NCBI GenBank assembly: GCA_964373715.1
Contig: CAYJVR010000005.1
Location: forward strand, 46,805-110,804
Length of the DNA stretch: 64,000 nt
Source: an uncultured Planctomycetia bacterium
GTDB lineage: Bacteria > Omnitrophota > Gorgyraeia > 1-14-0-20-64-10
Direction: 5' to 3'
In this document: positions 3,001 to 34,607 of the stretch, one piece after another
Layout of the letters: each line of letters starts with the position of its first letter
Numbering within the stretch: position 1 is the first letter of the stretch
Program-made: the position numbers and the translations under genes
The notes under the pieces: generated by a model
What the model was told of the DNA's origin: nothing
What the model saw: the letters and a program-made list of their open reading frames with translations, nothing else
Database searches by the model: none

Positions 3001-5892
3001 GAAAGCCTGGTTGCCGAAAGCCCGGCTTTCACGTCCGGCCAGCAAAACCGGGTACGGGAAATCCTCCGGAAGCCATTGTTCCCTGACGATGGCGCTCACC
3101 CTGCGGGCGTTTTCCGCTTCAACGTTCCGGTCGAAATCCCGGATCACCTGGTAGGTCGCCTGACGGCGGTCTTCGATATTCTGTTTTTCCAACGCGCGCC
3201 GGAAAGAGAGCCGGTCATACGGCAGATCAATGAGCATCTGGCCGGTCAGCCAGGAAACCCACCTGTCCCGGTAATTCCGCAGCATCTGCATCCGGCCCAA
3301 CACGTCGGCATCCGGCTCGGCATCCATCCGGTCCTCAAGGGTCAGGGTATCCACGTTGGCCAGATCACCCATCTCGGGACTGGGCAAACGGCTGGCATCG
3401 TTAAAGAAGTAGGCCCATGTGTTCCCGTGATCCACCACGGGAGAGTGGAGTACATTCAGAAGTTTTTCCTTTTCGTCCTGGGACATCTGCTGATAGAGCG
3501 CCAGCGTCAGGTGGGCCGCCTCGCGCGCGGAAAAACCGGCCGCCTGGGCAAACTCCTGAAAAAGGCCGACCGCATAAAGGACCGGACGGGCCTCATCGTA
3601 GCGGGAATCGGCCAGTTCGTCGCCGATCGTCGTGTCAAGCCGAAGCGCGGATTCCTCGTCCGTCAAATCCATGGTCATCGCGTGGTTGGCCCGAAGCTGA
3701 ATTGGAAGGCTGTCGGATTCCAATCGGTCGCGAACCCGCTGGACAACCGAAGTATCCTGATAAGCGGCCAACTTCAGGAGGCCTTGCCTGGTCCACTCAA
3801 GAACCCGGGCTGTGGCCGCCTGGTCCTGATCCTGGGCTTCAGCCGTCATCTGTAAGTCGGCAACCGTGCCGGAGGCGAAATTCAACTCAGCCGTACCGAC
3901 CAAGCGGCCGACCTGGCGCTTCGCGACCTGAAGGCCTCCGTCGGTAACGCGGGCGACTTTCGTGGCGAATCCTCTGGCCGGCTTGGTCACAAGGGTAGTT
4001 TCCTCCAAACCGCCCGTCACCGCCGAGGGCCAGATCTCCGTGTTGCCGTTCACGAAGAGTCTGCCGTCCGGCGATGCCTTCAGCATCAGTTTTCCTTTAT
4101 CCGGATCGGCGAAAAGGGGCTGCTGCGTGTCCGGATCGGTCTGGGTGATGGGAACAAGGGTCAATCCTTGAGGCGAGAAAACCGCACCGATAGGACCCAC
4201 CAATTTGAGCGTGCCGCCCCCAGTGAAACCCCGGAACCCCGGCCTCACATCGAGATAAACGGACGGCTCGACCTCCACAGTTACGCCGGCCTGCTGTGTC
4301 AAAACATGAAGCCGCTGACGGCTCTTCTGGTCCCGTGTTCTGGTGGCCCGGACAACCGCCTGGTAATCCTTGGCGGCCCCGTACTGGAGCTGATCCACCT
4401 GCAAAACGCCGAACCGGATATCGGGCTGGCTTCCGACAAAGGTCGGGATATGGGTCGCGAACATCTCAATGTTCCGCCGCTGCTGCCCGAGAAGGTCATC
4501 CCTGTCCCGGTCCACGTGTCGCAACGGCAAAGTGAGCCCGGCGGCGCGCGCGGCGGCTTTTTCAGAGAGCTTGAGTACGCCCGTGTTGAAACCAAACGGG
4601 TCGGTTCCGCTTGCCGCAACGGCCTGGTCTTCAACCTGATTGAAAACCGGCAGACCGGCAATTCCCTTCGCCGCATCCGGCTCCCGCTCCGCCTTTTCGA
4701 TAATCAGGTGCATCACCTGGCCAGACGGCAAAACAACATCCACCAGCGTGCCGCCGACCGGGGATGTCCTCGACACCTTGGCCGTGGCCACCGGCGCTAC
4801 ATCCAGATCAGCACTGGCAGAAAGCACTCGGGCGATGAATTCACCGCTGTTGAGGACCGGGTCGTCCCCGTAAAGCACAAGCCATGATTTTCCCTGCTGG
4901 ATTTTCCTCTTCTGCGCAAACTGGTAGGCCGCCTGGAAAGTGCCAAACGTGCCGTTGGGGTTGCGCAAAATAACGGGTTTATTCGTGCCCGGATCAATCG
5001 ACGTAAGAATCTTCCCGGTCTGAGGATGGAAACTGGGGAAGGTCCCCTGCGCCGTCACGTTGATGCGAACCCTCTTGGAATCAACGAAACGGCTGTTCTT
5101 CCGAATATCGTTGGCCACCGCCTCCGCGCTATCCGGAGCGTCCACCACGATCACCTCGACCCCGCGCGCATCCACAAGCCGCGCGAGCTCCGAAACCTCT
5201 TCGAGCGTCTGCACGATAGGGCTGGTCCCTGAAGGGCCTATCATCACGGTCGGTTTCTCTAGCCGGGTCAGCCTATTCAGCTGTTCCCTCAGCTCGGCCC
5301 ACAAGCTTTTCTTGAACCGGGCCCCGCCTCCTCCGGCTGCCACAACGATGACCGTATTCTCCAGGAGCTGTCTCATTTGCGCATGGCTCCAGGCGTAGGA
5401 CTGAGACTCCCCGATCGGCGTGGTCGATGGGGGGCGATACGCGGAAACATCAAGCGCCTCGATCATTTGCTGAACAGACTGCACCGGCTGATTTAAGACG
5501 ATGCTCACAAGCTGATAAAGCGTGGCTGGAGGATTGACTGGTTTGCCGGCATAATCCGCAAGCCTGGCCAAAACGGTTTTATCTGCGAGGCGGCTCAACT
5601 GATCGCGCAGACGCCTCTTATCCGACTGAGAGAAGGAGCTCCACCCCTCAATCAATTTGGAGGCGGTCAACTCCTCCAAACCAGCCACGGAGGCTGCGTC
5701 CGCCAGCCCTTGAAGGCGCAGCCTCAAATCATCTAAGCCGGCCTGGCCCTCAGGCTGCTGGACGCGAAGGGTCTGATCCCCTTTTTTCCGGTCCTCAGCA
5801 AAGGCGGGAAGAACAGGAGAGAAAATCAGCGCCTGGATAAGCACCCAGGCACTGATTTGATTAACTATATGGTTGGAACGATAAGTTTTCAT
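1..5892 (-). CDS. Giant multidomain protein, 3'-partial (start ATG at 5892; the frame stays open to position 1, so the C-terminus lies beyond the window; at least 1964 codons are present)
   Basis: I translated the minus strand by hand from the ATG at 5892. It reads MKTYRSNHIVNQISAWVLIQALIFSPVLPAFAEDRKKGDQ... and stays protein-like without any stop down to position 1, where the frame is consistent (5892/3 = 1964). It is missing from the ORF track only because it has no in-window stop. All plus-strand track ORFs in this 5.9-kb stretch are short, R/G/P-rich antisense frames. The protein has a signal-peptide-like N-terminus. Tentative motifs include a Gly-rich loop (AAGGGGARFKK) with a downstream FGFNTGVLKL segment reminiscent of UDP-sugar pyrophosphorylases (roughly 4480-5350), and a SAGPTTGYCIPKD motif near the window start. 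Confidence 0.8.
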   Translation of the reverse strand, partial: MKTYRSNHIVNQISAWVLIQALIFSPVLPAFAEDRKKGDQTLRVQQPEGQAGLDDLRLRLQGLADAASVAGLEELTASKLIEGWSSFSQSDKRRLRDQLSRLADKTVLARLADYAGKPVNPPATLYQLVSIVLNQPVQSVQQMIEALDVSAYRPPSTTPIGESQSYAWSHAQMRQLLENTVIVVAAGGGGARFKKSLWAELREQLNRLTRLEKPTVMIGPSGTSPIVQTLEEVSELARLVDARGVEVIVVDAPDSAEAVANDIRKNSRFVDSKRVRINVTAQGTFPSFHPQTGKILTSIDPGTNKPVILRNPNGTFGTFQAAYQFAQKRKIQQGKSWLVLYGDDPVLNSGEFIARVLSASADLDVAPVATAKVSRTSPVGGTLVDVVLPSGQVMHLIIEKAEREPDAAKGIAGLPVFNQVEDQAVAASGTDPFGFNTGVLKLSEKAAARAAGLTLPLRHVDRDRDDLLGQQRRNIEMFATHIPTFVGSQPDIRFGVLQVDQLQYGAAKDYQAVVRATRTRDQKSRQRLHVLTQQAGVTVEVEPSVYLDVRPGFRGFTGGGTLKLVGPIGAVFSPQGLTLVPITQTDPDTQQPLFADPDKGKLMLKASPDGRLFVNGNTEIWPSAVTGGLEETTLVTKPARGFATKVARVTDGGLQVAKRQVGRLVGTAELNFASGTVADLQMTAEAQDQDQAATARVLEWTRQGLLKLAAYQDTSVVQRVRDRLESDSLPIQLRANHAMTMDLTDEESALRLDTTIGDELADSRYDEARPVLYAVGLFQEFAQAAGFSAREAAHLTLALYQQMSQDEKEKLLNVLHSPVVDHGNTWAYFFNDASRLPSPEMGDLANVDTLTLEDRMDAEPDADVLGRMQMLRNYRDRWVSWLTGQMLIDLPYDRLSFRRALEKQNIEDRRQATYQVIRDFDRNVEAENARRVSAIVREQWLPEDFPYPVLLAGRESRAFGNQAFLFGNSGYALKTAEVVELTQQLLDAAKGEQFLSGMDAVVKSAPVWAQPELRKSAQRVKDLMAHVGPGTGRIRQQVYGPGKVISLTQFAGAIQQLRENLDIFYTQARQVFRQSQERAVKASREGVGRRPRQQDVAAKFTEAQQSLTSFSSEAGVLAAAINKLEEAILRAESYAAAYSVLMQRPSKSGSEKFKGNELEEKPEQEEALRKLVRLGGQNTYMSPSYDWVAEATDIIEAAPLFIYERTIEVDGKHVTVFEVDQEGLEQTIRQMADYWAQNIEKTMDSEHLALAREMVVYSTPALLDRARVLTEQGLPAEAAHRQAIQEVNSSEREQLLRRVSLTAAWLAREFDRRAEEIERYTEQRWAEQHFIDRLEALRLRAVGAPESGNYPDQCRESISQALASAKDLQAQAERLAPVAMMRRRPLPAFHLLTTEAPGLVEGFIQTVLEEEMALKNVVRSKNLDGEVRRRTQAYAQRIQQLGWQVIQEFGYEPIAEQYQVQGMNREQAIQQVISDHLAIQEEVARFAVLVEAAEADAVAAGGSFQFDPAHPDTDWVENLLKDQGTRAAFEQEAVPKVWERNQLDPDLADRVAQLTKGGTPQPQAVAQAIRESELYRRELESTVRWAARHRVLDQLDRQRPQLQLQDRARRWYRNHSGLSRTTARRETIAANKLQASMGDPRYAYSSGTLLEKKDGSFRPTGGRKRYHLIYAPSRVNLGKGERSSVEVWPQWVGVTDVLAAAHAKRFYELMNFNPQIRHIKEAENLKVSENQWTAMIRAVRNVQAYFVSRLGVGDIEDLAFQFNQRGGLPVAAIKEGESYSAGPTTGYCIPKDLLFKLFVASLQDSRKLTQIGIAKHLQPAVMGMMVHLAASQGEFETAGEWERWAAGELLSPEALQARFSPADATALQKAFAAYVEVTGGAVVYHLTKLSQILQTTGVPSPLLARGQSLHAALWSNWADRRLTLPAEEVNRSVVFSMTRDIPESVAESRRLNPSVAVAQETGIR

Positions 5893-5942: not shown

Positions 5943-8900
5943 TTACGCCTGCAGAGCCAAGGTCGCCCGGTCCACGAACGATTCCCAGAGGGCCAGAGAT
6001 TCCGGCAGCAGCTGGATCCTGAACAGAGCCAACAGAATCTGCTCCAGGGTGCCCGAAACCGACCGGTTCACGCCCACATCCTCCACCTGCCCGACCCCGT
6101 ACACCTGTTTCAGGTAGAAATCGGCCGCCGCTATCGCCGAATCCCGGTTCGGCGTGTTCGCCGCCGTATCGCCGATCCGGAAAATCGAGTTCTCCGAGAA
6201 GCCCATCTCGATCAGCTTCGCCTTCTCCTGCACCGTGTCCACCACGAACGCCACAGGCAACAACTGCCCGTCCGTTGTTTTCACACGGCTTAAAGCCGCT
6301 CCGATCGCCAACCCCTTGACTCCGTCCAGCGTACCGGCCATCACACCCACCGAAAGACTGGCCGTATCGGCCGACGGCAGAGATACTCTCTCCAACATCA
6401 ACTCCAAACCGGTCGGCACGTTGCTGCCGGAAATATTCGTCCGGGCGGCAACGGTCGAAAGAACCGGAGTAAAGATCTCTGTCGGCACCAGAACCGTGAT
6501 TGATTCCAAACCGGCCTGCTGCAGCTGCGGGACGAGGCCGTTGGGCCCTATCACTCTGGGCTGTATCCCCTCGATAGCCGGTTTGCCTCCCTGAGCCGGA
6601 GCGCCGCGGAAATTGGCCCAGGTATCCTGGACAAACGCGTTCTGCTCGGCCGGCGGATGTATCTCGGCGTAATCGGGGATAATCTTTCTTCCGCGGAAAT
6701 CATCCTTCGCCTTGGAAGACTCTATATCCTTCGCCGCCTGCTCCTCCAGCTTCACAAACTCGGCCAGCGCATCGCGCAAAGTGATCCCCGGACGCTCCTG
6801 CGCCAGGGTCTGCCGCTGATGCTCCCATGCCGGATCCGGCGAAGCCTGCGTCAACAGGTTGGCCACCTGAGCCAACTGGCCGGCCTTGGCCAAAGCATCT
6901 ACCCGGTCATAGACCCCGCGCAACGCGTAATGCAGGATAAACCGGCTGTAGGCGTCAATGGCAAGCTGAACGGCATCTGCATCTGTTTTCATGTAGTTTT
7001 TGCCGAGACCCGGAATACCGGGAGCCGTTACCGGCTGTTGATTTTCACCCTCAGGCGTCCAGGTCTGCGGCGTATCGAGATAATATCCGGAAACCGGCGC
7101 CGGCTTGCCCTGGACCGCCTGCAGACGGGCCCTTGCGTCCTTCATAAGATCAACCGTATCCTGACGGAAAACACGGAAATCAAACTGATGCCGCGTCGCC
7201 TTGTTCCGGGAAATATACTTCCCTTCGTTCCGCTTGACGGCAAACAGGTTATCCATGAGAACCCACGCCGGCACAATCTCGTTAAAAGCAGGCGCAAGAC
7301 CGGGCAGGGTTTCTCCCGGGGTATTGATCAGCGCAAACGGGAACGCCACCGTCTGCGGCAGTGTTTTGACGCTCGTCGCAATCAGCAGGTAAGGAGACCC
7401 CGAGAAATTCGACGGATACTTGATATCCACGCTCAAGCCGAAGAAGGTCCCTTCGCCCGGCAAAATCTCCTGGTCCGGTTCCTTCCCTGTGTGGTTCGAT
7501 CCGACATTGGCGCCGTAGCCGATATTCCCCTTTCCTTCAGGCCAAACCGCAGCGATGAGCAACGCCTGATGGTGGAACCCGACAAACGGCCCCACGAGCG
7601 CGGCGGTGACTTCCCCTTCCGCCACCCCGGTGTTCGGACCAAGCACCGAACCGGTCACAAAACCACCCCGTTCGGCATGCGAATGTTCCAGCAAAACGCT
7701 CTCGCGCACCTGGGCGGCAGACTCCACGGAGGAACCCCACTGGATAACCGAGCTTTCCACAATCGCTCCATCGGTGATTTTTGTCTGTTCCGTGTTGCTG
7801 CTTAAAATCGTCGTGTCGCGGACGGCAGCGGCGCCGATGATCTGGGCCCCTTCGCCCACATACACGTTGGACACATCCCGGCTGTTGACGATCCGGGCTC
7901 CCTTTTCCACGATGCCGACCGGAGAAGCCGCGGCCGCCACATACTGCGCGTGCGCCGCGTTGTAGTCGGCCTGGAGGGCCTGATGCTCACGGCTGCGCAC
8001 CACAGCATCCCGGTCCGCCGCAGGAATCTGAGCCGGTTCCACCCCGTTGTACTTCGCGAGCAGTCCTTCATTCACTCCCGAAGTCGCCAAACGGGCCGCC
8101 GCGTCCAACAACATGTCGGCGAACGGCCGGATGATCCGACCAGCACCCTTCACGCCGACCGTTTCAGGGCCGACGGCGATCTTCGTACCGAGGCCGAACG
8201 ACGTCGGCTTCCCGGAGGCGGTCACATCGCCGTTCACGATAATGACGTTCTCCTTCACCACCTGATTAGACACCACAGAGTTGCCGTAGATCAACGGGTT
8301 CGAACCGATCCTGCTGTTGATGACCGTCGAGTCGTAAATTCCGAGCGGCAGGTTCACGCCGGGCTTAACCTCGGCAGTCCCCGTTCCGATGGACCAGATC
8401 TCCACGTCCCCGAAGAACCGGTTGTCCCGAATTTTGGTCAAATCTGTGGACGGTACAACCCGGACGCGGCTCCAATCCTCCGCACTGTTGCCCTGAGACT
8501 CCATCTGGGAAATCTGCGCCGCCGACAACTGGACCGGAGGAACGGCCGACTGCCACTGGCCGGAAACCACCTGCTGGACAGCTTGGAGGAACGGAGAACC
8601 GGCAATCGCCTCCTTGATCGCCTTCACCACGTCGTACTTCTCCTCCAAACCGGCTTGAAACCGATCCTTGATTTCTTGATCCAGACCTTTTTGATGGAGG
8701 GTGGCCATTGGAGTATTTACATCCGCTACAGCCAAAACCACCCGTGGTGCTTGGTTATTCAGTTGAAACGCTTCGGCAAAACCAACCGTACCCTCCATCT
8801 GGAGAGCAGTCAAAACATCCTGAACCAGTTGACCAGGAGCAGGTCTAACGTCTGCGACAACATACATCTTGGATCGCTGAGGATCTCCCGGAAACTCGGT

Positions 8901-11900
8901 GACCACCGTTTGAACTCGGGCCTGGCCTGGAACCGACTGAAGCACGGAGTAGCCTTGGTAGGCTTCAATAATCCCTTCCACTTCTTCATCCGATAATCGG
9001 GACCCGAATTGTGTATGGACGCCGGCTTCGACCGGAGGAACCGCTAAGGCCGTACGGATTGCATCTGCCACACCCAACTCCTGAAGTCTCTGGACCGATT
9101 CCCTCATATCCAAAAGCTCATAGGCAACTCGCATTCGCCCCTCAATCGGCTCTTGAGGATAGTTGTCCGACACAATGTCCTCTATGCTCAATCCTGCATT
9201 CGAGACCACCGTCCCGATGTCCCGGAGTAGTCCACTACGGTCCCACGTGGCGATGGCGATGACAGCGTGTTGGGGATTTCGGCTGTCCGGGTACATCCGA
9301 ACCTGCGGCTGATTGGTTTCAAAAACACCCAACCCCATTTCGAACAAATCGCCCAGAGCTCCTTCCGGAAGTTGTCGGAATGCCGCACCGCGAAGTCTTT
9401 CTCCAAGGAAATCAGCAGGAACCTGAATAAGCCCCGTCGGTGGAATGGCAGGGCCCGGACCCGGGCGGAATGTGGAAACCGGTTCCTGAGGCCCTTCCTC
9501 CAACGCCTCATCCCGGAAATGGCCGAACCTCTCCGCCAAAATTGCCCCAAAGGCCGCCACATTGAAATTCCCCAACGCATCTGTCGCATTCGGAACTGCA
9601 AAAATCCCTTCCGGATCCTGCAGTTCCGGGTTGTTGACCTGCTCTTCAGTAATCGGAGCTAGTTTTACCGGGCCAGCCTCGATAATGGAGCGCCGAATTA
9701 GATTGGTCTGACCTGGACCCGGCTTTTGCACGTTGTCATTGAGCGTAACCAGGAGAAATCGTCCATTCCTGGAGTCATACACTTGAGCATCTGTGTTCGT
9801 AGAGTCGGCAAAGTCGCTGTCTGTCATCACAAAGAGAACCAGGGTATCGTTGTCGAGTGGATATTTTGGGTTCACGCCATACTTAAGCCGATAAGCCGGA
9901 TCATCGGTATTCTCCGAATACTTCTTTTTATTCGGATCCACTGCTGCCAGAGGGCCATGCCACGCCGAGTCGTTCAACTGCGCCTCAGCAAAGATCCCCA
10001 GCATCGACAGAACCCTGGCTAACTCTTTCGCTGCCTCATAGGCCTGGCCGCCGCCGATAATATGAACCTTCCGATATTGGCTTAACTTCCGCAGGAGGTC
10101 TTCCAGGCGTTTTGCGCTGACTCTGTCCGCAAGCACCTCGGCGACCATAGCCGGTACTGTCCGCAAAGAATTCTGGAAATCGGCCGTGTTGCGGCCCAGC
10201 AACTCCCCCATCCTGGCCCCAACCGTTAAGAGAGCCAGATAGGTTAAGGGGTAAACGCTCACGTCATCCACGTCCGCTTCAAGAGAAAGATGGGCCACAC
10301 GGGTCGGATTGAACTTGCTGTCTCTCAAGCCCGAGACATCATCCGAGATCGTGACCAAGGGAACGCCCCGATCCCGCAAACGCTGTGCCAGCGAGATCAT
10401 TCGCTCCTCCGACCTCTCATCCTGCTGTCGAGGCACCTCTGCGCCTGTCCGCAGCTTAAAAGGAAAGGCCACCTGCGGCAGTTGAGCATTCGCAGGACCT
10501 CGGTTCCGGCCTCTGGAAATGAGGAAGACCACCGTGCCTTCATCCACCAGATCCTCAATCCCGCGATCGGTGCTCCGGAAAACCTTAATGTTCTCAATCC
10601 CAGACAAGAGCAACTCGGGCTGGGTGGCCTTAAGTTGCAGGCCGGAAAGGAGTTTCTCCGGTTCTTTCGGATCCGGGAGAAATGAGCTGGGATCCACAAT
10701 GTACTCTCGGCCGTTGAACGAAACCGTTTGAACCGCTTGGGTGACGGAAACCTCTTTGGTCTCCGGCTCTTTGCCTTGAGCGTAAGGGTTCAAGTCCGGT
10801 GCGTAACGGATGGTGTACCTCTTTTCCGCCGAATTATAGGAAGCGCGATAATACCAACCTCCAATCCGGACTCGGACACCTTTCGTATACAACTCCGATC
10901 GAACACCGGAGACGACAGGCTCTGTCCAGCCAAAGGGCCCTACGGCTGCCCCAGCGGCATACTGCGTGGCCTCTTCATCGGTCACGATGACAACCCTCGC
11001 TCTGGGCTCAGGAGCCCCTGCCGCTTTGCTGAACCGCTGGAGAAGCTGCCCAGCTCGCGTCTTATCTTCCGGATGGACCAGAACCCCTTCTGGCCCAGTC
11101 CATCTCTCCAACGCCATATTGAGCAAGAGGGGCAGACGCGAGATCGACTGCTGCCGGGGGGTCTGAAGAGCCGGCCAGGCTCGAGCGAGACCGCGCTGAT
11201 AGTTTCTGAATGAGGCCTGAGACCCTTCCACCTGCCCGGCTTGTTCCTGTGTCGTCACATACCGGGCGGCAGAAGCCTGAATCAGCTCTTCGCGGGAACG
11301 GGCGCCGCTGACCACAACAGACTTCGCTAAGTTTCGCGAGTTGTCGATCTGCGAATCGGTGATTCCATGGGCCCGTGCCAATGCCAGCGAAAACCGAAAG
11401 TACAGCGGTGCGTCTACCAAACCCTGGAGAGTCAAACGAACCCTTGGAACAATCACAAGGTCGATCTTTCCTTGTTCCTGAAGCTGGATCAGGCGCGCCA
11501 GATGCCTGTTATCCTCCGCAAAGGTCTGAACCACAACCTGAATCCCGGCCTGGGTGACCTCATCAATGGCTCTGATAAACTCGTCCAACCGTCCAGGATC
11601 GGTCATGTTGAAGATCGTCGCGACACGCTCCGCCTCGGGCACCTTGGGGTCCGCCGTCCTTAAAAGGAGATTTCGCCAGCTTTCATCCCCGATATCAGCC
11701 GCCTTCCCAACGAGCCAGGCAATTTCTTCTGCCTTGAGTTCTCCCTCAATGTAAATCGGATTGTTCCGGCTGCCGATGACAAGAACCTTCTGCCGATCCT
11801 TCCAGGCACGAGCCACGCGATTCACCAGAGACTCCACATCTTCCCGCGTATCGAGGACCCGGTTCCGGTCCTCCTTCCCCGGTTCGACAATCAGGCCGTA

Positions 11901-14900
11901 CACATGGTCCACCACTTCCCACAGATTTTGAACATAGGCCTTTCGCTCCGCATCCAGCTTCGGATCGCCGCGAAACTGGCTCATCTGAACGCCCAACAAG
12001 GAAAGAGAATATAGGACAGACTCAAAACCCTTTGTTGTTGCCACGGAAGACTCCGGACCGGACTTCACATCAATCACCCCGGCGCTTTCTTTCGAAAGCC
12101 GGCCCATATCCGACCCGGTCTTGCCGGTGACGGACATCATCGACACCCCTTCACTGGAAAACCGGTTGAAAAGTTTGACCGTGGAGGCGGTGCTCCCGGA
12201 CCAGCTCATTCCGACTGCCAAATCAGTCTTCGGATTGAGCTTGATCCCCCGGTTCTGAATATCGACCGGGTCGTAGACAAGTATCTCCACGCCCGGTAAA
12301 AGCTCCCGGAACAACTGCTCGGCCACCATGGCATCCCGCCAGGAGCTTCCCACACCGATCAAGAAGATCCTTCTTAAGTTCTCTAATTTCTGCCCAAAAC
12401 GGTCTCTCAAATAACCCGCGTTCAACGTCGGGATGTTGACCGAAACCGGCTGGCCCTGCTGATTGAAAGCCATGTACGAAACGGCTTGATCCAGAAGGAT
12501 CTTCGGAATCTCATCTATGTGCATCTCCATAAAGGTCCGATAGATTCCCTTGACCCCAAGTTCTGGAGAAACTGTCTCTTCTACCTTCTTCGCCTCCTTC
12601 GTCAATTCCTTTTCGGTCAGCGGAGAGCCGTCGAGGTGGGTGACGTCCACATTCAGGCGGGCAGCGCCCTGCTCATCCAGCCGCCGGGTCACCCGGGCAA
12701 ATTTGTTCAGCTCTTTAAGATGGTAAACATCCACCTTGTATTGTTTTCGGATCGGATCCGCCCTCTGCTCATATTCCCGCAGCGCATGGGTGACCTCCTG
12801 GGCATACTGCTGCGCATTGATCCCTCCTTGGCTGGGAGGTAACTGGCGAAGCTCCCGCAAATGCTCCAGGGTTTTCAACAACTGCTGCTGCATCTCGGAC
12901 AGTTTCCTCGCCGCCTCAGCCACCTCCGGCGCAGGGAAAAGGGCTATCCCGGCCGCATAGTCCGACGTCACAAGAATCCGTTCACCGACCATCACGATAT
13001 CGACCGGCCGGTCATGGCTGACCACGTAAGTCATCAAGGGGCTGTGTAAACTTGTCGCATTCACCCCAAGCTCTGAACCGTCCTCCATCTCCAGGGTTGC
13101 TACACGGAAAGCCACTTCATCCGGATTGATCTCGCGTCGGCCCTGAGCGCGCAAATTCTCCACCACTCTGTTCCAGACCTGGGCCCTGTTGAACTCGTTG
13201 CGGTCCTGGTTTAACTGGCCAAGGAGATTGAGTTTCACCATCAGGCCATCCGCTTCTACCCGGCCGGCCGCCTTATCCATCTCAAACTGCTTCGCCACAT
13301 AGTCCCAATGGACCACAATCGTCCGGGTGTCCGTGACAATGCTGTAGCGGGCTTTTGTCCCAGTCGGTGTTGTCTCCTCTGCCCAGTAATACCCCTCGAA
13401 ATCTTTGAAATACTGCGCTTCCGGTCCCGACTGCTGGAACGCTTCCATATGTTCCTTCCTCAAGGCGCTGTTGATCGTCCCCTTGACCTGGCCGTTGTGG
13501 ACAACGACCCTGCTCTTCGTGTTGTGGGGATGTGCATTCCATCGGCTCGGGTCGCCGGTCATCGCCCAACGGCCGTGCCCGACCACCATCTCTCCCAGGA
13601 GCCGTACCGTGAACTCGGTGACCGCCCCAAGGCTGTAACCCCGGCGATAAGTCCCCCGCTGCGGCTGGGTGGGATTGGAAACCCCTGTATCCACCTGCTG
13701 CTGACGGATCTGGAGAATCCTCTGGTAGACCTTATCCGGCAGGAGGGGAGCCTGGATCACTTGACCGTTCTCGACGATATCCACCTTCTGGGTATGGGCC
13801 CAGTCATGAAACCAGTCGACCAAAGCGGCAAAGGCATGCCCGGGCATATTCAGGTTCCGTTCACGCTTCCAGAAGTCAAACCAATTCTTCCCGCGACCCG
13901 GTACCCGCTCTTCAAACCGCCGCTTCACCTCGGACAACCACTCCGGATGAGCCTGAAACAGGCCGATCAAGCCCCCCTGCATTCGGAAAACATGGCGGGT
14001 CGGATCCACATTGTAATCGGGTGGAACCACAAGCCAGCGGCCCACAAGAAAGTCCATCACCTCATCCCATCGTTCATGCTCCTTTGGCGTCAGCTGCCCG
14101 GAGAGCGCCCGACTGGAGAGGAGGTCATAAACTCGCATGATCTCCTGTGTCTTACCGGGAATCAAACCTTTAGCTTCCTGGAGAGCGTGGGAGAGTTCTG
14201 CCCGGAGAAACAACTGGACAAATTCGGGTGTCAAATCAAACAGACGGCCGATTTCCCGAACAAGATCCGGAAGGTCGTTATGCCGAATCAAGACCTGATC
14301 GCCGGCCCAGACACCGCCGACTCGCCCGACTTGAACGCTGGCTCGTCCTTCAAAAAGATCTCCGAGTGTCGTCCTTGTCAGATCGTAAAGAGGCCAGCGG
14401 CCTGTTCCAATTTGTTCTGAAGTGGGCACGAATTCCATCAGCCCCTCTTCACTCAAAAGCTTAAAACCTTGTAGACGCGCCTCGTGAACCGCCGAAGGCA
14501 GTAGCCACTCTCTTTCTCGGCGCCGCGCTTCTGACCAAGCCCCGGCTGCCTCCTGCCGGTACTGTTCCTTCTGCTGGGGAGAAATCCCTTGTTGACGCGA
14601 ACGGGCCCAGACCAGGCGGCCTCTGTTGATGCTCTCCTGTATTTGCTGTAGCAGATCATGCTGTGGTTGATAGGGGTTTCCTGACATCGTCTTATCGGCA
14701 TGGGGAAATGTCTCTGGGTAGATCGGATAATTGTAAAGATACTGAATCAGAGTACCCGGCTCACCATCTCCCTGCCCCTGGATGTCCATGCCCGCCTTCA
14801 CCACGCGCGGTCCCTCCTCCGTCCACACCAACAAACCGGTGTTGTCCGGAGCCCGGTACTTGAGGCGCAATACCGCGTCCAGAATTGCGCGAATCCCTCC

Positions 14901-16019
14901 ATACTGGCCGAAAACGGAGTTGACGCCGCAGCATCCGACGATCTGTTCCAACGCCTCGGCATCGGCCAAACGGGCCCGGCCCGGAAGGATCTTCGCCAAC
15001 GCCGAATCGTTCAGCGAGGTCCACACCAGCGCGGTCTGGACCGGCTGATTGCTCCGGACAAACTCGCTGATGCTGAACGTCCTGTTGTCCTCTCCGACAA
15101 AAGAGATTTCCGTAGGGGTCGCGTTGACGGAAAAAACACGATCCCGGTCAAGAAGGGAGATCCGCCCGGTGCCGTCAATCGCCAGCGTGACAAAGTGAGG
15201 ATGCGCTTCGTTATCAATGTTCCGCTCCACAGCCACGGTCACCGCCTGCACCTTCCCCTGGTTCTGCCGGATCAGATCAATCGCCTGACGGAAGACAGCC
15301 GCCCCGGTGTCGCTGAAAACAACTCCCTGAGAAGCGCCGCCTCGCGCCGCTCCCATCGAAGCGATCTCATTCAAGTCTAATTGCGCCGATCCGTCCGGAC
15401 CGAGCGGCCGGACCGAGCCGGTGTGAACCGCGTGGCGGGCCGCCATGTACGATTGATCAAAAACCAACCCCGCCGGATCCATCGCAAGAGATGATCCCTG
15501 GTGGTTCCGGGTCACGTACGCGGCGCAGGAAACGCATTGCGGATCCCCCATATCGGCGCCGGCAACGGCCTGCTGAACCGCCGGGTTACCCGGCGCTAAA
15601 AGGGCCGCCATGATCTGGTCCCACATCTTGGTGTTCGAGACCTCTTTGCCGTATTTTGAAAAAAGCAATTCCAACCGGCGGACCGCCTCCGCCTCATTAT
15701 CCAAAGGAGACTGAGGATTCCAGCCGGGCATGGTTTCAGACCAGATCGGATCGGCCGAAAAACGGCCGACAACATTCTTCAAGCTGCCAGTTCCGGTAAA
15801 GGGAGCGGCTATCGTCCGTAACGCCTCTTCCAACCCGGCCAAAACACCGGGGGCTTCCGAAGTCTGGCCGGGGCGCAACGCCCACACCGGGGCAACCTGC
15901 GTCAGAACAACGGACAGCATGGTGACGAAAGCAAACGATTGACGATAACCGGAAAACTTATGAGACCGCATCGATTTAATTCTCCCTATTAAATGATTTA
16001 ACTTCTCGTTTGGACTCAT
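5943..16019 (-). CDS. Giant (3358 aa) multidomain protein. It carries a papain-like Cys/His candidate region near the N-terminus, a GlmS-like glutamine amidotransferase (type 2) module, tandem SIS domains, a third SIS-like domain, an ACT domain and a C-terminal beta-helix module I identify from memory as DUF4954-like
   Basis: ORF-track ORF. N-terminus has a signal-like segment (MRSHKFSGYRQSFAFVTMLSVVLTQVAPVWA). Class II GATase matches: GCCGVNSVFGQYGGIRAILDAVLRLKYRAPDNTGLLVW (about 14900-14930) and HGRWAMTGDPSRWNAHPH / VVVHNGQVKG (about 13480-13590). SIS motifs: WSGSTASTVKLF / VATTKGFESVLYSL (about 12050-12450), VLVIGSRNNPIYIEGELKAEEIAWLV (about 11700-11800) and VHIIGGGQAYEAAKELARVLSMLGIFAEA (about 9980-10060). 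ACT-like segment: AIATWDRSGLLRDIGTVVSNAGLSIEDIV (about 9140-9260). Nucleotides about 6600-8560 encode hexapeptide-repeat sequence that aligns end to end with the stand-alone 663-aa protein at 34525..36516 (GAIVESSVIQWGSSVES ... GFHHQALLIAA ... GYGANVGSNHTGKEPDQEI ... VKRNEGKY). Confidence 0.85.
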   Translation of the reverse strand: MSPNEKLNHLIGRIKSMRSHKFSGYRQSFAFVTMLSVVLTQVAPVWALRPGQTSEAPGVLAGLEEALRTIAAPFTGTGSLKNVVGRFSADPIWSETMPGWNPQSPLDNEAEAVRRLELLFSKYGKEVSNTKMWDQIMAALLAPGNPAVQQAVAGADMGDPQCVSCAAYVTRNHQGSSLAMDPAGLVFDQSYMAARHAVHTGSVRPLGPDGSAQLDLNEIASMGAARGGASQGVVFSDTGAAVFRQAIDLIRQNQGKVQAVTVAVERNIDNEAHPHFVTLAIDGTGRISLLDRDRVFSVNATPTEISFVGEDNRTFSISEFVRSNQPVQTALVWTSLNDSALAKILPGRARLADAEALEQIVGCCGVNSVFGQYGGIRAILDAVLRLKYRAPDNTGLLVWTEEGPRVVKAGMDIQGQGDGEPGTLIQYLYNYPIYPETFPHADKTMSGNPYQPQHDLLQQIQESINRGRLVWARSRQQGISPQQKEQYRQEAAGAWSEARRREREWLLPSAVHEARLQGFKLLSEEGLMEFVPTSEQIGTGRWPLYDLTRTTLGDLFEGRASVQVGRVGGVWAGDQVLIRHNDLPDLVREIGRLFDLTPEFVQLFLRAELSHALQEAKGLIPGKTQEIMRVYDLLSSRALSGQLTPKEHERWDEVMDFLVGRWLVVPPDYNVDPTRHVFRMQGGLIGLFQAHPEWLSEVKRRFEERVPGRGKNWFDFWKRERNLNMPGHAFAALVDWFHDWAHTQKVDIVENGQVIQAPLLPDKVYQRILQIRQQQVDTGVSNPTQPQRGTYRRGYSLGAVTEFTVRLLGEMVVGHGRWAMTGDPSRWNAHPHNTKSRVVVHNGQVKGTINSALRKEHMEAFQQSGPEAQYFKDFEGYYWAEETTPTGTKARYSIVTDTRTIVVHWDYVAKQFEMDKAAGRVEADGLMVKLNLLGQLNQDRNEFNRAQVWNRVVENLRAQGRREINPDEVAFRVATLEMEDGSELGVNATSLHSPLMTYVVSHDRPVDIVMVGERILVTSDYAAGIALFPAPEVAEAARKLSEMQQQLLKTLEHLRELRQLPPSQGGINAQQYAQEVTHALREYEQRADPIRKQYKVDVYHLKELNKFARVTRRLDEQGAARLNVDVTHLDGSPLTEKELTKEAKKVEETVSPELGVKGIYRTFMEMHIDEIPKILLDQAVSYMAFNQQGQPVSVNIPTLNAGYLRDRFGQKLENLRRIFLIGVGSSWRDAMVAEQLFRELLPGVEILVYDPVDIQNRGIKLNPKTDLAVGMSWSGSTASTVKLFNRFSSEGVSMMSVTGKTGSDMGRLSKESAGVIDVKSGPESSVATTKGFESVLYSLSLLGVQMSQFRGDPKLDAERKAYVQNLWEVVDHVYGLIVEPGKEDRNRVLDTREDVESLVNRVARAWKDRQKVLVIGSRNNPIYIEGELKAEEIAWLVGKAADIGDESWRNLLLRTADPKVPEAERVATIFNMTDPGRLDEFIRAIDEVTQAGIQVVVQTFAEDNRHLARLIQLQEQGKIDLVIVPRVRLTLQGLVDAPLYFRFSLALARAHGITDSQIDNSRNLAKSVVVSGARSREELIQASAARYVTTQEQAGQVEGSQASFRNYQRGLARAWPALQTPRQQSISRLPLLLNMALERWTGPEGVLVHPEDKTRAGQLLQRFSKAAGAPEPRARVVIVTDEEATQYAAGAAVGPFGWTEPVVSGVRSELYTKGVRVRIGGWYYRASYNSAEKRYTIRYAPDLNPYAQGKEPETKEVSVTQAVQTVSFNGREYIVDPSSFLPDPKEPEKLLSGLQLKATQPELLLSGIENIKVFRSTDRGIEDLVDEGTVVFLISRGRNRGPANAQLPQVAFPFKLRTGAEVPRQQDERSEERMISLAQRLRDRGVPLVTISDDVSGLRDSKFNPTRVAHLSLEADVDDVSVYPLTYLALLTVGARMGELLGRNTADFQNSLRTVPAMVAEVLADRVSAKRLEDLLRKLSQYRKVHIIGGGQAYEAAKELARVLSMLGIFAEAQLNDSAWHGPLAAVDPNKKKYSENTDDPAYRLKYGVNPKYPLDNDTLVLFVMTDSDFADSTNTDAQVYDSRNGRFLLVTLNDNVQKPGPGQTNLIRRSIIEAGPVKLAPITEEQVNNPELQDPEGIFAVPNATDALGNFNVAAFGAILAERFGHFRDEALEEGPQEPVSTFRPGPGPAIPPTGLIQVPADFLGERLRGAAFRQLPEGALGDLFEMGLGVFETNQPQVRMYPDSRNPQHAVIAIATWDRSGLLRDIGTVVSNAGLSIEDIVSDNYPQEPIEGRMRVAYELLDMRESVQRLQELGVADAIRTALAVPPVEAGVHTQFGSRLSDEEVEGIIEAYQGYSVLQSVPGQARVQTVVTEFPGDPQRSKMYVVADVRPAPGQLVQDVLTALQMEGTVGFAEAFQLNNQAPRVVLAVADVNTPMATLHQKGLDQEIKDRFQAGLEEKYDVVKAIKEAIAGSPFLQAVQQVVSGQWQSAVPPVQLSAAQISQMESQGNSAEDWSRVRVVPSTDLTKIRDNRFFGDVEIWSIGTGTAEVKPGVNLPLGIYDSTVINSRIGSNPLIYGNSVVSNQVVKENVIIVNGDVTASGKPTSFGLGTKIAVGPETVGVKGAGRIIRPFADMLLDAAARLATSGVNEGLLAKYNGVEPAQIPAADRDAVVRSREHQALQADYNAAHAQYVAAAASPVGIVEKGARIVNSRDVSNVYVGEGAQIIGAAAVRDTTILSSNTEQTKITDGAIVESSVIQWGSSVESAAQVRESVLLEHSHAERGGFVTGSVLGPNTGVAEGEVTAALVGPFVGFHHQALLIAAVWPEGKGNIGYGANVGSNHTGKEPDQEILPGEGTFFGLSVDIKYPSNFSGSPYLLIATSVKTLPQTVAFPFALINTPGETLPGLAPAFNEIVPAWVLMDNLFAVKRNEGKYISRNKATRHQFDFRVFRQDTVDLMKDARARLQAVQGKPAPVSGYYLDTPQTWTPEGENQQPVTAPGIPGLGKNYMKTDADAVQLAIDAYSRFILHYALRGVYDRVDALAKAGQLAQVANLLTQASPDPAWEHQRQTLAQERPGITLRDALAEFVKLEEQAAKDIESSKAKDDFRGRKIIPDYAEIHPPAEQNAFVQDTWANFRGAPAQGGKPAIEGIQPRVIGPNGLVPQLQQAGLESITVLVPTEIFTPVLSTVAARTNISGSNVPTGLELMLERVSLPSADTASLSVGVMAGTLDGVKGLAIGAALSRVKTTDGQLLPVAFVVDTVQEKAKLIEMGFSENSIFRIGDTAANTPNRDSAIAAADFYLKQVYGVGQVEDVGVNRSVSGTLEQILLALFRIQLLPESLALWESFVDRATLALQA

Positions 16020-24708: not shown

Positions 24709-26001
24709 TCAGCCGACGGTGGAACCGCGGGTGAGCCCCTCGATGATGTAGCGCTGGAAGCAGAGGAAAACAACAATGACAGGAAGGGAGGTGATCGCCG
24801 AGCCGGCCATCAGATGGACCCAATCCACGCCGTGAAGCGACTTGTAGAGGGCCAAGCCGACCGGCAGCGTGCGCATCTCGACCGTGTTGGTCAGAAGGAA
24901 CGGGTAAAGGAATGTGTTCCAGGAACCCATGAAGGTGTTGATCCCGACAACGGCCAAAGCCGGCTGGGAGAGCGGGACGATCACGCGCGTGAAAATCTGG
25001 AATTCGGAAGCCCCGTCAATCCGGGCCGCCTCCTCAACCGCCAAAGGCAACTTGGAGATGTACTGCCGCATGAGGAAGATGTTAAACGGGGCCACCAGGT
25101 TCGGCACAATCAGCGCCCAGTAGGTGTTCAGCCACCCCAGGTGCTTCATCAGGATGAAGACCGGCACCATCAGCACCTGCGGCGGGATCGCGATCGAACC
25201 GACAATCATGAAGAACATCAGCTTCTTGAACGGAAAGTTCCGGCGGGCGAAAGCATATCCCACCATCGTCGAGAAAAGAAGGTTGCCTAAGGTGACCGCC
25301 AGCGCTATGCCGAAAGAGTTGACGGAATACCGGCCGAACGGGCCGCTGACCAGCACATCCCAGTAGTTGTTCAGCGTCCATTTCCTGAAGACAAACCGGA
25401 TATCATCCAGATAGACCGTTCCGGCCCCCTCATTGAAGCTTAAGGCGAGCTCTTCCGCCTGCCGCTCCGGCAGGTTGGGACTGAGCATCGAGAGGTTGAA
25501 GGCCTTCATCGGGATCCGGACCGTCTCCCAGGAGGTCTTCAACCCGCCGCGCAGAAACCGCTGGATCCCAAGGCTGGCGCTGCGGCCCTTCACGTCCGCC
25601 AGCTCAAGCGTGAAATCCTCCCCGCCGATCTCCCCCTTGACCTTGAACTCAAGGTAAGAAAATTTCCGCATATCCTGCCCGACGCGTGTGACCCACCGGG
25701 CTGGGCCGTCCCCCTTCTCATAACGGATCACCATCCGGCGGTTCTGCCGCAAGACCGGCTCCGCCGGATAAAAAGAGATCTGCACCTTTGAGGTGCCCTC
25801 CGCGCTGACCATAATCGGGCCGCCGATGGAGTTCGTGCTCCCGATCTCAAAGTCAGCCACAAGCACCTCTTCAATCCGCTGGAACAGGGTCCCGGTCGGC
25901 TTCATCGAGGTGTAGAACATCAGGACCAGCGGCAGCAAGGTCAAGACGAGCATCACCGTGAGAATACTGATCGCCACGCTAATCGCCAGCCGCTCACGCA
26001 T
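24709..26001 (-). CDS. CUT1-family carbohydrate ABC transporter permease (MalG/UgpE-like) with a roughly 170-aa periplasmic insertion that carries the carbohydrate-binding-like module
   Basis: 430 aa. TM1, then an insert (about 25390-25900) containing LEFKVKGEIGGEDFTLELAD ... SWETVRIPMKAFN ... LALSFNEGAGTVYLDDIRF, which matches the module of the 40596-45684 paralog array. Then a typical permease core with an EAA-like loop (AVEEAARIDGASEFQIF). Confidence 0.85.
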   Translation of the reverse strand: MRERLAISVAISILTVMLVLTLLPLVLMFYTSMKPTGTLFQRIEEVLVADFEIGSTNSIGGPIMVSAEGTSKVQISFYPAEPVLRQNRRMVIRYEKGDGPARWVTRVGQDMRKFSYLEFKVKGEIGGEDFTLELADVKGRSASLGIQRFLRGGLKTSWETVRIPMKAFNLSMLSPNLPERQAEELALSFNEGAGTVYLDDIRFVFRKWTLNNYWDVLVSGPFGRYSVNSFGIALAVTLGNLLFSTMVGYAFARRNFPFKKLMFFMIVGSIAIPPQVLMVPVFILMKHLGWLNTYWALIVPNLVAPFNIFLMRQYISKLPLAVEEAARIDGASEFQIFTRVIVPLSQPALAVVGINTFMGSWNTFLYPFLLTNTVEMRTLPVGLALYKSLHGVDWVHLMAGSAITSLPVIVVFLCFQRYIIEGLTRGSTVG

Positions 26002-33441: not shown

Positions 33442-34607
33442 TTTGTGATGATGCGCGGCGGCCTGACCGACTTAGGCCGAGGAGCATTCTTTTGCGTATG
33501 GACAAGGACCGAAAGAACCCTGTAGGCCTCGTCAGGATCTTTGGTGTGGATAAAAACACCTCGGAGCCGTTCCATCTCAGCCGCCGAAAACATCTTCAAG
33601 GTATCCCTGAGAATCTCTCCGATCATCTCCTCCTTTCCGGAAAACGAGGGGGTCTTCGAGACAGCGAAGGGGATCGTCTCGACGCCGATGTAAAAAGATG
33701 TCCCCTCCTGCTTCGCCCGGTTCCGGACAATCTGGGAAACGGAGGCTATATCGTCCGGAACATTTCGGTATGTCATGGAGGCAATTTCCGTGTTTCTGAT
33801 CGGCCTTAACCCGAACACCCTGACACCGCTGGCGGTCACCTGCCCGTTTTCAAACCACCACGGCTCAAAACGAACCAAAACAGGGCCATTAACCACCGGT
33901 TTCCCATCAGGCCGCAGTCGATTCTTGGCGAAGGTTTCCAACGGAGGCAAAACAACCTTTTCCATCATCTCCACGTAAGAGGATAAATTCCCGTCCCAAG
34001 TCTTGCCGGCCTTGCGCTCCTCGGGAGGCAGCGCGTAAGGCTCCACATTCACGGCGAACGCAACCCCCAAGCTTCCCAAATCAAGCTGTCCCAGCTGGGA
34101 AATCAGGTCCTTGTAATGATAATCCACGAATTCCCAGTTCTTCGGCCAATCGTAATTGCCGTCAATAAACCCGATCGTCCTCAAACCCGCTTCAGAAGCC
34201 TGCAGGAGAACCGCCTGCTTCTCCTGCCTGTTCATCTGCCGGAACGGATATCCGCAGATCCAAACGGTATCAATGCCGGCCCGGACAGCGAGAGGGAAAA
34301 AATACTGGTTGTTCACGATAGGCTTCGGATTCCAGACAACGAGTGAAATGCCGCGGTTGGGACCCAGCTTCTGCCGCAAAACGGCCAATTGACCGTCGGG
34401 CTCTTCAAAGGAGGCCGCGCGGACAAGAGGAACAGCGGATAAAAAAATAGCGGCGGCAAAGAAAAAGATCCTCTGCCGCCGCCTGATCGCTTTTATGAGC
34501 CTCATTCGCTCCCCGGAAACACCCTTAAGCTGAAGCCCCCTGGCCGGCATATTGTTTACTGCCGGAATTGGACTTGCCAAGCGCTGAAAGCAGCTGATGG
34601 ATCTCAT
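33438..34607 (-). CDS. Secreted hypothetical protein of the glycoside-hydrolase-like TIM-barrel family; the true start is probably the Met at about 34505 (MRLIKAIRRRQRIFFFAAAIFLSAVPLVRA)
   Basis: Resembles the 316-aa protein at 39649..40599 and the central domain of the 764-aa protein (W.W... IDT ... GFIDGNYDWP compared with YALAGDPRWG). 4-nt overlap with the upstream gene. Confidence 0.6.
   Translation of the reverse strand: MRSISCFQRLASPIPAVNNMPARGLQLKGVSGERMRLIKAIRRRQRIFFFAAAIFLSAVPLVRAASFEEPDGQLAVLRQKLGPNRGISLVVWNPKPIVNNQYFFPLAVRAGIDTVWICGYPFRQMNRQEKQAVLLQASEAGLRTIGFIDGNYDWPKNWEFVDYHYKDLISQLGQLDLGSLGVAFAVNVEPYALPPEERKAGKTWDGNLSSYVEMMEKVVLPPLETFAKNRLRPDGKPVVNGPVLVRFEPWWFENGQVTASGVRVFGLRPIRNTEIASMTYRNVPDDIASVSQIVRNRAKQEGTSFYIGVETIPFAVSKTPSFSGKEEMIGEILRDTLKMFSAAEMERLRGVFIHTKDPDEAYRVLSVLVHTQKNAPRPKSVRPPRIITN

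Follow-up and report, generated by a model that had tools for sequence, protein, structure and literature searches.

Class II glutamine amidotransferases carry a glutaminase domain of the N-terminal nucleophile (Ntn) type, in which the free alpha-amino group of the first residue, Cys1, serves as the general base. Some are made with a propeptide, glutamate synthase among them; that of Bacillus subtilis PurF is 11 residues long, and the known propeptides are short. The catalytic Cys of B. subtilis PurF and of plant GPRAT2 is internal in the primary product and is made residue 1 by proteolysis (PMC7056826), their propeptides having no conserved leader motif and being thought to be removed autocatalytically. 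A second set of described systems comprises the C39 peptidases of AMS/PCAT transporters (CvaB, ComA, LahT, and PCAT1), the substrates of which carry a leader with the consensus LSXXELXXIXGG (PMC1538908); expressed as a rule, this is Leu(-12)/Glu(-8)/Leu(-7)/Val(-4) plus Gly-Gly/Ala/Ser (PMC1538908, PMC6363468). In the C39 peptidase LahT, Cys27 lies on helix alpha1, and His101 and Asp117 lie on strands beta4 and beta5 (PMC6363468). N-terminal C39 domains have also been reported in giant proteins of the Omnitrophota, where they might cut the giants at cleavage points that are unknown (West-Roberts et al., 2023; bioRxiv 10.1101/2023.11.21.568195), and a further preprint of 2026 (10.64898/2026.06.07.730766) describes a 24-protein PF03412 architecture cluster among the long proteins of this phylum. 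This article concerns a giant open reading frame (ORF) on contig CAYJVR010000005.1 (assembly GCA_964373715.1) of an uncultured bacterium labeled Planctomycetia and placed by GTDB in the Omnitrophota. The whole stretch of DNA analyzed, 64,000 nucleotides (nt) from positions 46,805 to 110,804 of the contig, is referred to here as the window, and all coordinates are window positions. The ORF joins a predicted C39-like peptidase domain and a double-glycine-type leader to a GlmS-like enzyme, and the fused protease probably cuts once, between Cys363 and Cys364, freeing the N-terminal Cys of the enzyme, such that the precursor would be a zymogen.

The GC1/GC2/GC3 pattern is that of coding DNA along the whole ORF, the first 400 codons included, and the same protein, identical, is found on contigs of two sequencing runs. 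Its probable true start is M17 (nt 15969-15971), which would give a product of 3342 amino acids (aa), because it is preceded at 10 nt by GGGAG, is the start in the public gene call, and is the point at which the N-termini of homologues align; residue numbering is nevertheless kept from the first ATG. The three motifs on which a preliminary description of this DNA had drawn lie in this single ORF at the places it gave: DPQCVSCAAYV at aa 159-169 (nt 15513-15545), HPHFVTLAIDGTG at aa 273-285 (nt 15165-15203), and IVGCCGVNSVFG at aa 360-371 (nt 14907-14942). A phmmer search with residues 1-1130 against 1.84 billion representatives returned 93 hits. Conservation is reported below over a set of 26 members, drawn from these hits and from genome loci fetched with the junction alignment (A2), in which a complete N-domain was found by the N-domain family profile (A1; hmmsearch, E <= 1e-3). 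The ORF and the features of its N-terminal part are as follows.

5943..16019, minus strand: giant ORF, 3358 aa counted from the first ATG, uninterrupted; the protein studied here
15879..15938, minus strand: N-terminal hydrophobic segment, aa 28-47, SFAFVTMLSVVLTQVAPVWA, followed by LRP (alignment; hydropathy peak 1.62)
15000..15734, minus strand: predicted C39-like papain-fold cysteine peptidase domain with a helical pre-domain, aa 96-340 (AlphaFold, Foldseek, hhalign, and Pfam C39 matches of relatives)
15525..15527, minus strand: Cys165, predicted nucleophile, second Cys of C162-V-S-C165, in 26/26 members and at the start of a model helix
15195..15197, minus strand: His275, predicted catalytic His, in 25/26 members, aligning with CvaB His105 and on a beta-strand in the model
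15147..15149, minus strand: Asp291, predicted third triad residue, 16 residues past the His, D/E in 24/26 members, aligning with CvaB Asp121 and on the next beta-strand
14931..14969, minus strand: double-glycine-type leader, aa 351-363, LADAEALEQIVGC, with L357 at -7, I360 at -4, G362 at -2, and C363 at -1
14925..14930, minus strand: Cys364-Gly365, predicted new N-terminus and glutaminase nucleophile, both residues in 26/26 members

Conservation, a structural model, and profile comparison support the reading of the N-terminal extension as a papain-fold, C39-like cysteine peptidase that is predicted to be active. Beyond the near-invariant triad, Cys162 is present in 18 of the 26 members, and neither His273 nor Gln161 is conserved; across the family, the His-to-Asp spacing is 15-18 residues and the Cys-to-His spacing 105-125 residues. 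The AlphaFold model of aa 96-370, built from a 16-sequence alignment, has a pLDDT of 88.8 and a pTM of 0.89, while a single-sequence model of residues 51-1050 was of no use (pLDDT 38). In the former, a helix (70-76 in model numbering) opens with Cys165, and His275 and Asp291 lie on consecutive beta-strands, which is the layout of LahT (PMC6363468). The top Foldseek matches of the model in the PDB are papain-fold cysteine peptidases, namely Josephin-like clippases (9g7g and 9f5t, E ~1e-4), AvrPphB, staphopains, and phytochelatin synthase, and the C39 domain of PCAT1 (7n87) is matched as well with a probability of 0.93. Structure prediction, which had been proposed as a check, thus agrees with a papain-like fold. 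Although the Josephin-like ubiquitin clippases (PaJOS 9g7g and BpJOS 9f5t) are the best structural matches (probability 1.0), TM-scores of 0.27-0.42, identities of 12-16%, and the lack of sequence-profile support set them apart, and the sequence evidence favors C39.

The sequence relationship to C39 was assessed against a reference alignment (A3) of nine genuine C39 domains of peptidase-ABC transporters, taken from plasmid records and comprising CvaB and relatives down to 26% identity. With hhalign, the family (A1) matches this alignment over the His/Asp half with a Prob of 96.1% and an E-value of 3.4e-9, pairing His275 with CvaB His105, Asp291 with Asp121, and T-A-L-V with T-G-V-A. The best PDB sequence-profile matches of the family profile are likewise C39 domains, at sub-threshold scores. 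One relative, P0010, exceeds the Pfam threshold for PF03412 Peptidase_C39 (25.5 vs. 22 bits), and two others fall just below a threshold, P0009 with 21.5 bits against Peptidase_C39 and P0008 with 20.1 bits against C39_2. Among the features by which C39 peptidases are recognized, the window protein has, in the model, a papain-type fold in which the nucleophilic Cys begins a helix; it has a His followed about 16 residues later by an Asp on the adjacent strand, in an HFVV...DP...F...TG signature; and in silico it has a substrate with a double-glycine leader that would be cut after the second small residue. In the preliminary description the Cys and His motifs had been likened to those of the papain family. 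The fold and the conservation of C165 and H275 bear this out, but Q161, C162 (18/26), and H273 are not conserved, and the domain is C39-like and not of the C1, or papain, family proper. It is extremely improbable that the two motifs are chance short matches without function; even though the N-terminal region of the window protein has no Pfam match of its own at E <= 10, the residues are conserved across 26 distant homologues, the AlphaFold model is confidently of papain fold, and the hhalign match to C39 is as given above.

The predicted nucleophile is the second Cys of a C-x-x-C (nt 15525-15536, aa 162-165) that is found in 18 of the 26 members and stands at the start of a helix. C-x-x-C at a helix start is the geometry of thioredoxin-type redox motifs, and by analogy the protease could be inactivated under oxidizing conditions by a disulfide between Cys162 and Cys165.

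Downstream of this domain, the sequence ahead of the glutaminase Cys has the form of a C39 substrate. The window junction reads L351-A-D-A-E-A-L357-E-Q-I360-V-G362-C363↓C364-G-V, and when the 16 residues ahead of the invariant Cys are aligned in 17 members, the most frequent residues are L at -12 (9), S at -11 (7), D/E at -10 (10), E/D at -8 (14), L at -7 (13), V/I at -4 (12), and G at -2 (16), followed by C-G-[I/V]. Over the 26 members, position -2 is G in 22, V in three, and A in one; position -1 is C in 13, A in five, G in four, S in three, and D in one; and a literal G-G↓C-G occurs in two. The resulting pattern, L(-12) S x x E(-8) L(-7) x x V/I(-4) x G(-2) [C/A/G/S](-1)↓C-G, agrees with the published C39 leader consensus. 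A position-specific scoring matrix (PSSM) of the leader gives 16-32 bits at the junction of each giant and no more than 12 bits elsewhere, which is the level of shuffled sequence (95th percentile 11.5); for the window protein the values are 23.8 bits at the junction and <=11.7 elsewhere. In the AlphaFold model, confidence is also high for the leader (pLDDT 86-95 over aa 346-365). Cys364 is invariant and pairs with Cys1 of GlmS, whereas several residues (C/A/G/S/D) occur at position 363, and hence the predicted cut, Cys363↓Cys364, separates nt 14931 from nt 14930; a cleavage at Gly↓Cys had been suggested earlier, and the predicted bond is one residue further on than Gly362↓Cys363. Many double-glycine sites per protein can be ruled out, as the PSSM finds one in each, the next-best being at shuffle level. 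With one leader site per protein, the products would be two fragments and not the polyprotein set that had been envisaged.

The leader is followed by an enzyme that resembles GlmS in the order of its domains, a glutaminase domain followed by two SIS domains, which occupy these positions.

14808..14930, minus strand: first piece of the class II glutaminase domain, aa 364-404, with KYRAPDNTG corresponding to EYRGYDSAG of GlmS
13596..14807, minus strand: ~400-aa insertion, aa 405-808, that divides the glutaminase domain in two
13305..13595, minus strand: second piece of the glutaminase domain, aa 809-905, with GHGRWAMTGDPSRWNAHPH, VVVHNG, and TDT
11310..12590, minus strand: isomerase region of GlmS type, aa 1144-1570, with two SIS domains and NLAKSVVV (the GlmS K603 motif) at its end

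In comparisons with PDB sequences, the segment from Cys364 to KYRAPDNTG aligns with GlmS residues 2-42, with Cys364 equivalent to GlmS Cys1; aa 809-847 (GHGRWAMTGDPSRWNAHPH to VVVHNG) align with GlmS 65-103 and alone give an E-value of 9e-6 against the isolated glutaminase domain 1xff; and aa 1144-1570 align with both GlmS SIS domains up to the C-terminal LAKSV motif. The codons ahead of Cys364 are ATC GTC GGA TGC. As no start codon is among them, an internal translation start just upstream is ruled out, and initiation followed by Met removal cannot expose Cys364; the candidate amidotransferase Cys is buried in the protein, as had been proposed. A glutaminase domain lacking its other catalytic residues had been named as grounds for abandoning that proposal, but alignment with canonical GlmS N-domains finds equivalents of Cys1, R26, D29, R73, W74, N98, G99, and D123 all present, in a domain split by the insertion.

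The enzyme is nevertheless divergent from GlmS. It matches the NCBIfam glmS model (TIGR01135) in three stretches with 151.9 bits, below the equivalog cutoff of 418, and it differs further in the insertion, in the protease module that precedes it, and in another 1,800 aa beyond the GlmS-like part. The isomerase part keeps equivalents of GlmS Lys603, Lys485, and Glu488, the equivalent of His504 is Trp, and the sugar-phosphate loop SQSGET reads SWSGST; the reaction of this part may differ from that of GlmS. Divergence of this kind (152 bits against 418, a 400-aa insert through the glutaminase domain, and the altered His504 and SQSGET positions) would also fit a protein in which no cleavage takes place, the glutaminase domain being idle in an ammonia-dependent or a sugar-phosphate-binding or regulatory enzyme and the N-domain being structural or membrane-associated. 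This is very unlikely, given that every glutaminase catalytic residue tested is conserved, that Cys364-Gly365 is invariant in 26/26 members though overall identity in the N-domain is 15-20%, and that the protease triad and the leader are likewise under selection. Computation thus supports the fold, the homology of the His/Asp half, the conservation of the catalytic residues, the leader and its uniqueness in each protein, and an intact glutaminase active site.

The distribution of the module is in keeping with a function tied to the nucleophile. About 60 of the 93 phmmer hits begin M-C-G-I/V, the ordinary way to expose Cys1, whereas the giants of 2.2-4.9 thousand aa (kaa) have an extra 300-500 aa ahead of the same Cys. 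For the MCG-starting relatives of 1.5-1.8 kaa, the match to the query also covers sequence in the insertion and past it (aa ~550-1130), and the shorter MCG-starting hits are ordinary GlmS-like fragments that match aa ~800-860 only. In the genome scan, the N-terminal extension was present in metagenome-assembled genomes (MAGs) of Omnitrophota (L003, L004, and L006) and in one labeled Planctomycetia (L005), while homologues in MAGs of Anaerolineales, Desulfobacteraceae, and Deltaproteobacteria start M-C-G-I-V and are without the module. By this division among lineages, the bacterium from which the window comes is almost certainly of Omnitrophota type. Relatives P0007, P0012, and P0013 are 36-46% identical to the window N-domain and matched the query there only; downstream of the module, P0007 has Pfam GATase_6 and the more distant P0077 has GATase_6/7, both class II glutaminase domains. 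The same N-module hence precedes class II glutaminase domains without detectable mutual similarity. Since the leader is followed by the C-G of such a domain in 26/26 members, the only setting in which the module was seen, the protease module and the Ntn Cys are by this sequence evidence functionally coupled and not accidental neighbors. A word-indexed protein homology search found nothing for residues 1-1130 or for the N-domain alignment, which reflects the limit of the method and not absence, because the exhaustive HMMER search found the family; similarly, a genome-contig scan with the single protein found nothing and an alignment-based scan recovered the loci. The ~400-aa insertion is common to uncharacterized MCGIV-starting proteins of 1.5-1.8 kaa from other phyla (e.g., loci L007-L009), and from this shared insertion the long GlmS-like proteins would therefore form a family of their own.

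From these observations we infer the cleavage itself, the fused domain as its agent, and its action in cis or between copies. The first ~363 residues would constitute a self-processing activation module joined to the GlmS-like enzyme, in the order of a hydrophobic signal or anchor (aa 28-47), the helical pre-domain, the C39-like peptidase (Cys165/His275/Asp291), and the leader (aa 351-363). In C39 enzymes, the residues equivalent to leader positions -7 and -4 sit in a hydrophobic groove, and the peptidase would bind its own downstream leader in this manner via L357 (-7) and I360 (-4) and then cut after Gly362-Cys363. This would release an anchor-plus-protease fragment (aa 17-363) and leave a protein of ~2,995 aa that starts CGVNSVFGQ, with Cys364 as its first residue; the neo-N-terminal peptide of the cut enzyme would be CGVNSVFGQYGGIR, and the junction-spanning stretch of the uncut protein would be IVGCCGVNSVFGQYGGIR. 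The two fragments would be the only products. Because class II glutaminases need the free alpha-amino group of Cys1, the uncut protein would be an inactive zymogen, in which cutting switches on glutamine hydrolysis. The likely reason for such a module is that the giants of this lineage bear an N-terminal targeting sequence, which prevents exposure of Cys1 by Met removal. The earlier suggestion that an upstream peptidase releases the amidotransferase N-terminus accordingly finds computational support in the predicted fold, the C39 homology, the conserved triad, and the C39-type leader.

The predicted arrangement can be set beside several known ones. It has in common with the C39 domains of AMS/PCAT transporters a papain-type fold, a nucleophilic Cys that opens a helix, a His and an Asp on adjacent strands with a spacing of 15-18 residues, an HFV...DP...F..W.TGV signature, and an LSxxELxx[IV]xG-[small] substrate signal cut after the small residue. 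It differs in that protease and substrate are in one polypeptide with no attached ABC transporter, in a Cys-to-His distance of 105-125 residues vs. about 73, in the extra helical pre-domain, in having no conserved oxyanion Gln, in a nucleophile that is the second Cys of CxxC and a -1 residue that is mostly Cys, and in a cargo that is an enzyme of ~3,000 aa and not a peptide; the window domain is also below the Pfam threshold. Within the window, no other gene with this domain and no canonical C39/PCAT peptidase gene was found. Compared with the propeptides of PurF and GPRAT2, the extension is far longer, at ~350 aa, and contains a dedicated protease together with the recognition sequence of that protease. 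N-terminal papain-like leader proteases of viruses (Lpro of foot-and-mouth disease virus, HC-Pro of potyviruses, and nsp1 of arteriviruses) free themselves by a single cut at their own C-terminal side. The likeness to these is one of analogy; the gene here is cellular, the cut would also create a catalytic N-terminus, and a fold search of BFVD for viral relatives gave nothing at E <= 0.001.

Several observations weigh against self-activation by a C39-like protease. The Foldseek TM-scores are only 0.3-0.4. The N-domain of the window protein has no match by itself in Pfam (residues 1-363 and 364-809; E <= 10), NCBIfam, or PDB sequences, so that its link to C39 runs via the family profiles and relatives; the profile searches that had been called for gave no direct match, although the His/Asp half of the family matches C39 and P0010 passes Pfam. 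The Cys-containing half is not significantly similar to C39 by hhalign (Prob 0.5%), and C39 membership therefore rests on the His/Asp half and the fold. All nine genuine C39 domains have a Gln ~6 residues ahead of the nucleophile, and the family has no conserved Q/N before Cys165; the window protein thus lacks the oxyanion Gln and similarity around the Cys, and falls short of the Pfam gathering threshold. To our knowledge, Cys at -1 is not a documented specificity of C39 peptidases. If the N-terminal segment were a Sec signal that is removed by cleavage, the protein would be exported in its entirety, which is hard to reconcile with glutamine and sugar-phosphate chemistry. Lastly, in P0021 (4077 aa), the catalytic His is replaced by Thr (~293) and the Asp by Ala/Asn (~311), and the nucleophile Cys, the leader (ATQEELSSIFGC↓CGI), and the glutaminase Cys are retained; the correlated loss suggests that His and Asp work together, and that this protein is matured by another route.

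Such a route may be the attack of the glutaminase Cys364 on the Cys363-Cys364 bond itself, in the manner of other Ntn enzymes, with the C39-like domain cutting other proteins or acting as a non-catalytic binding or secretion-chaperone domain. Cleavage in P0021, which keeps the junction and the Cys without His and Asp, must occur by means other than the triad; the short N-terminal propeptides of glutamine PRPP amidotransferases (GPRATs) are described as removed autocatalytically to expose the Cys (PMC7056826); and the C39 domains of Omnitrophota giants might cleave other substrates, the chaperone-like case of HlyB having been cited in this regard (West-Roberts et al., 2023). Autoproteolysis, however, requires no conserved upstream sequence, yet positions -12, -8, -7, -4, and -2 obey the rule of the very protease family that is fused upstream; retention of the Cys/His/Asp triad in 24-26 of 26 members argues against a pseudo-enzyme; and the module occurs only ahead of class II glutaminase domains (26/26). 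Ntn-type autoproteolysis, which the preliminary description had offered alongside a peptidase, is accordingly rather unlikely, a live alternative but less favored than the C39-like protease.

Past the GlmS-like part, the extra 1,800 aa of the giant comprise one more SIS region, an ACT domain, a DUF4954 module of the left-handed beta-helix type, and a C-terminal domain that is conserved. A short motif recurs along the protein as follows.

15825..15839, minus strand: first AGLEE motif, aa 61-65
8640..8654, minus strand: second AGLEE motif, aa 2456-2460, two residues before the DUF4954 module
6615..8636, minus strand: DUF4954/left-handed beta-helix module, aa 2462-3135
6501..6515, minus strand: AGLES motif, aa 3169-3173, ahead of the conserved C-terminal domain of ~190 aa

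The module, aa 2462-3135, and a free-standing DUF4954 paralogue at 34525-36516 can be aligned over their full lengths (40% identity, E 3e-162), and because the module is the stretch that lies between AGLEE-2456 and AGLES-3169, the motif marks module borders. The paralogue is a protein of 663 aa on the minus strand, so the same module is both fused and free in one locus. The pattern [AGST]-G-[LM]-E-E occurs in 2-4 copies per giant vs. 0.03-0.08 expected, and each of the eight copies present in the window belongs to a giant ORF on the minus strand, those apart from the ones listed above being at 52936, 56618, 57507, 63639, 5685, and 4014 on that strand. AGLEE-type motifs may be linkers or processing signals. 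They can be ruled out as C39 sites, having no -4/-7/-12 pattern and no PSSM score and being present in giants without the C39-like domain; a literature search for an "AGLEE" protein motif found nothing relevant. It is conceivable, but quite unlikely, that the giant is a true polyprotein giving several products and belongs to an export and assembly system peculiar to its lineage. The signal conserved at the N-terminus (ILSFTFTQAxPAWALRPE) would then target the giant, the C39-like protease would make the first cut and switch on the glutaminase, possibly gated by redox state through its CxxC nucleophile, and the AG[LM]EE motifs would be further processing sites for a trans-acting protease. This has its basis in the exact bracketing of the DUF4954 module by the motifs and in the occurrence of the same motif after the hydrophobic N-terminus of the protease-less giants of the window.

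The hydrophobic segment at aa 28-47 looks like a putative signal peptide or membrane anchor. Its family consensus is ILSFTFTQAxPAWALRPE, followed 10-20 aa later by xGLEE, and its conservation is far above that of an ordinary signal peptide. Four other giant ORFs in the window are without the C39-like domain, yet have a hydrophobic N-terminus and then xGLEE. Similar N-termini are seen in the ORFs at 45815-53128 and 53085-56819 and in the ORF starting at 5892, and the shared N-terminus suggests a lineage-specific targeting or sorting signal. If the segment directs export, the location of a glutamine-dependent enzyme is a puzzle. The last of these giant genes (1-5892, minus strand) starts 51 nt past the stop of the studied gene and runs off the start of the window; it is open for 1964 codons in the window, is called as a protein of 4734 aa on a public contig, and has the N-terminus MKTYRSNHIVNQISAWVLIQALIFSPVLPAFAEDRK...AGLDD...AGLEEL. 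The very long ORFs at 45815-53128, 53085-56819, and 56839-63963 (minus strand; 2437, 1244, and 2374 aa) have no Pfam match, and two of the three have a common C-terminal end, ...VGFE(V/M)MK(K/R)(I/V)LE(E/Q)MGFV...KVD(F/L)QKVQ(A/S)YLDSLA. Between 18090 and 28284 and at 36602-37369 (minus strand) lie genes for a GH94 phosphorylase, a ROK protein, a NagA-like amidohydrolase, a NagB-type deaminase, and sugar ABC transporters, the last including two unusual fusions, CBM30 with a permease (24709-26001) and a solute-binding protein with a permease (26026-28284). Several CBM-bearing proteins are also encoded nearby, and judged by its predicted genes the neighborhood is a setting of amino-sugar and oligosaccharide utilization.

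The class of C39 domains in Omnitrophota giants is already known, and the protein described here shares with those giants the phylum (L003, L004, and L006 being MAGs of Candidatus Omnitrophota) and a C39-type domain near the N-terminus beside a predicted signal peptide. It is smaller (3.3 kaa) and built of sugar-metabolism modules, and neither of the two preprints mentions an amidotransferase cargo, whereas here a specific bond, a leader, and a functional reason are proposed; a literature search combining double-glycine, C39, and amidotransferase found nothing relevant. What appear to be new are a defined cleavage site, the union of protease and substrate in a single chain, and a cut that would unmask an Ntn enzyme. 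The giant proteins of the Omnitrophota are a current puzzle, to which this locus offers a concrete predicted bond (Cys363↓Cys364), a recognizable signal, and a fused protease. If the proposal is true, it would represent a new route of activation for an Ntn amidotransferase, next to Met removal and self-cleavage of a short propeptide, and a metabolic enzyme would be made as a zymogen with a bacteriocin-type protease built into the precursor. The double-glycine/C39 system would thereby extend from small exported peptides to an enzyme of ~330 kDa that is cut in the same chain.

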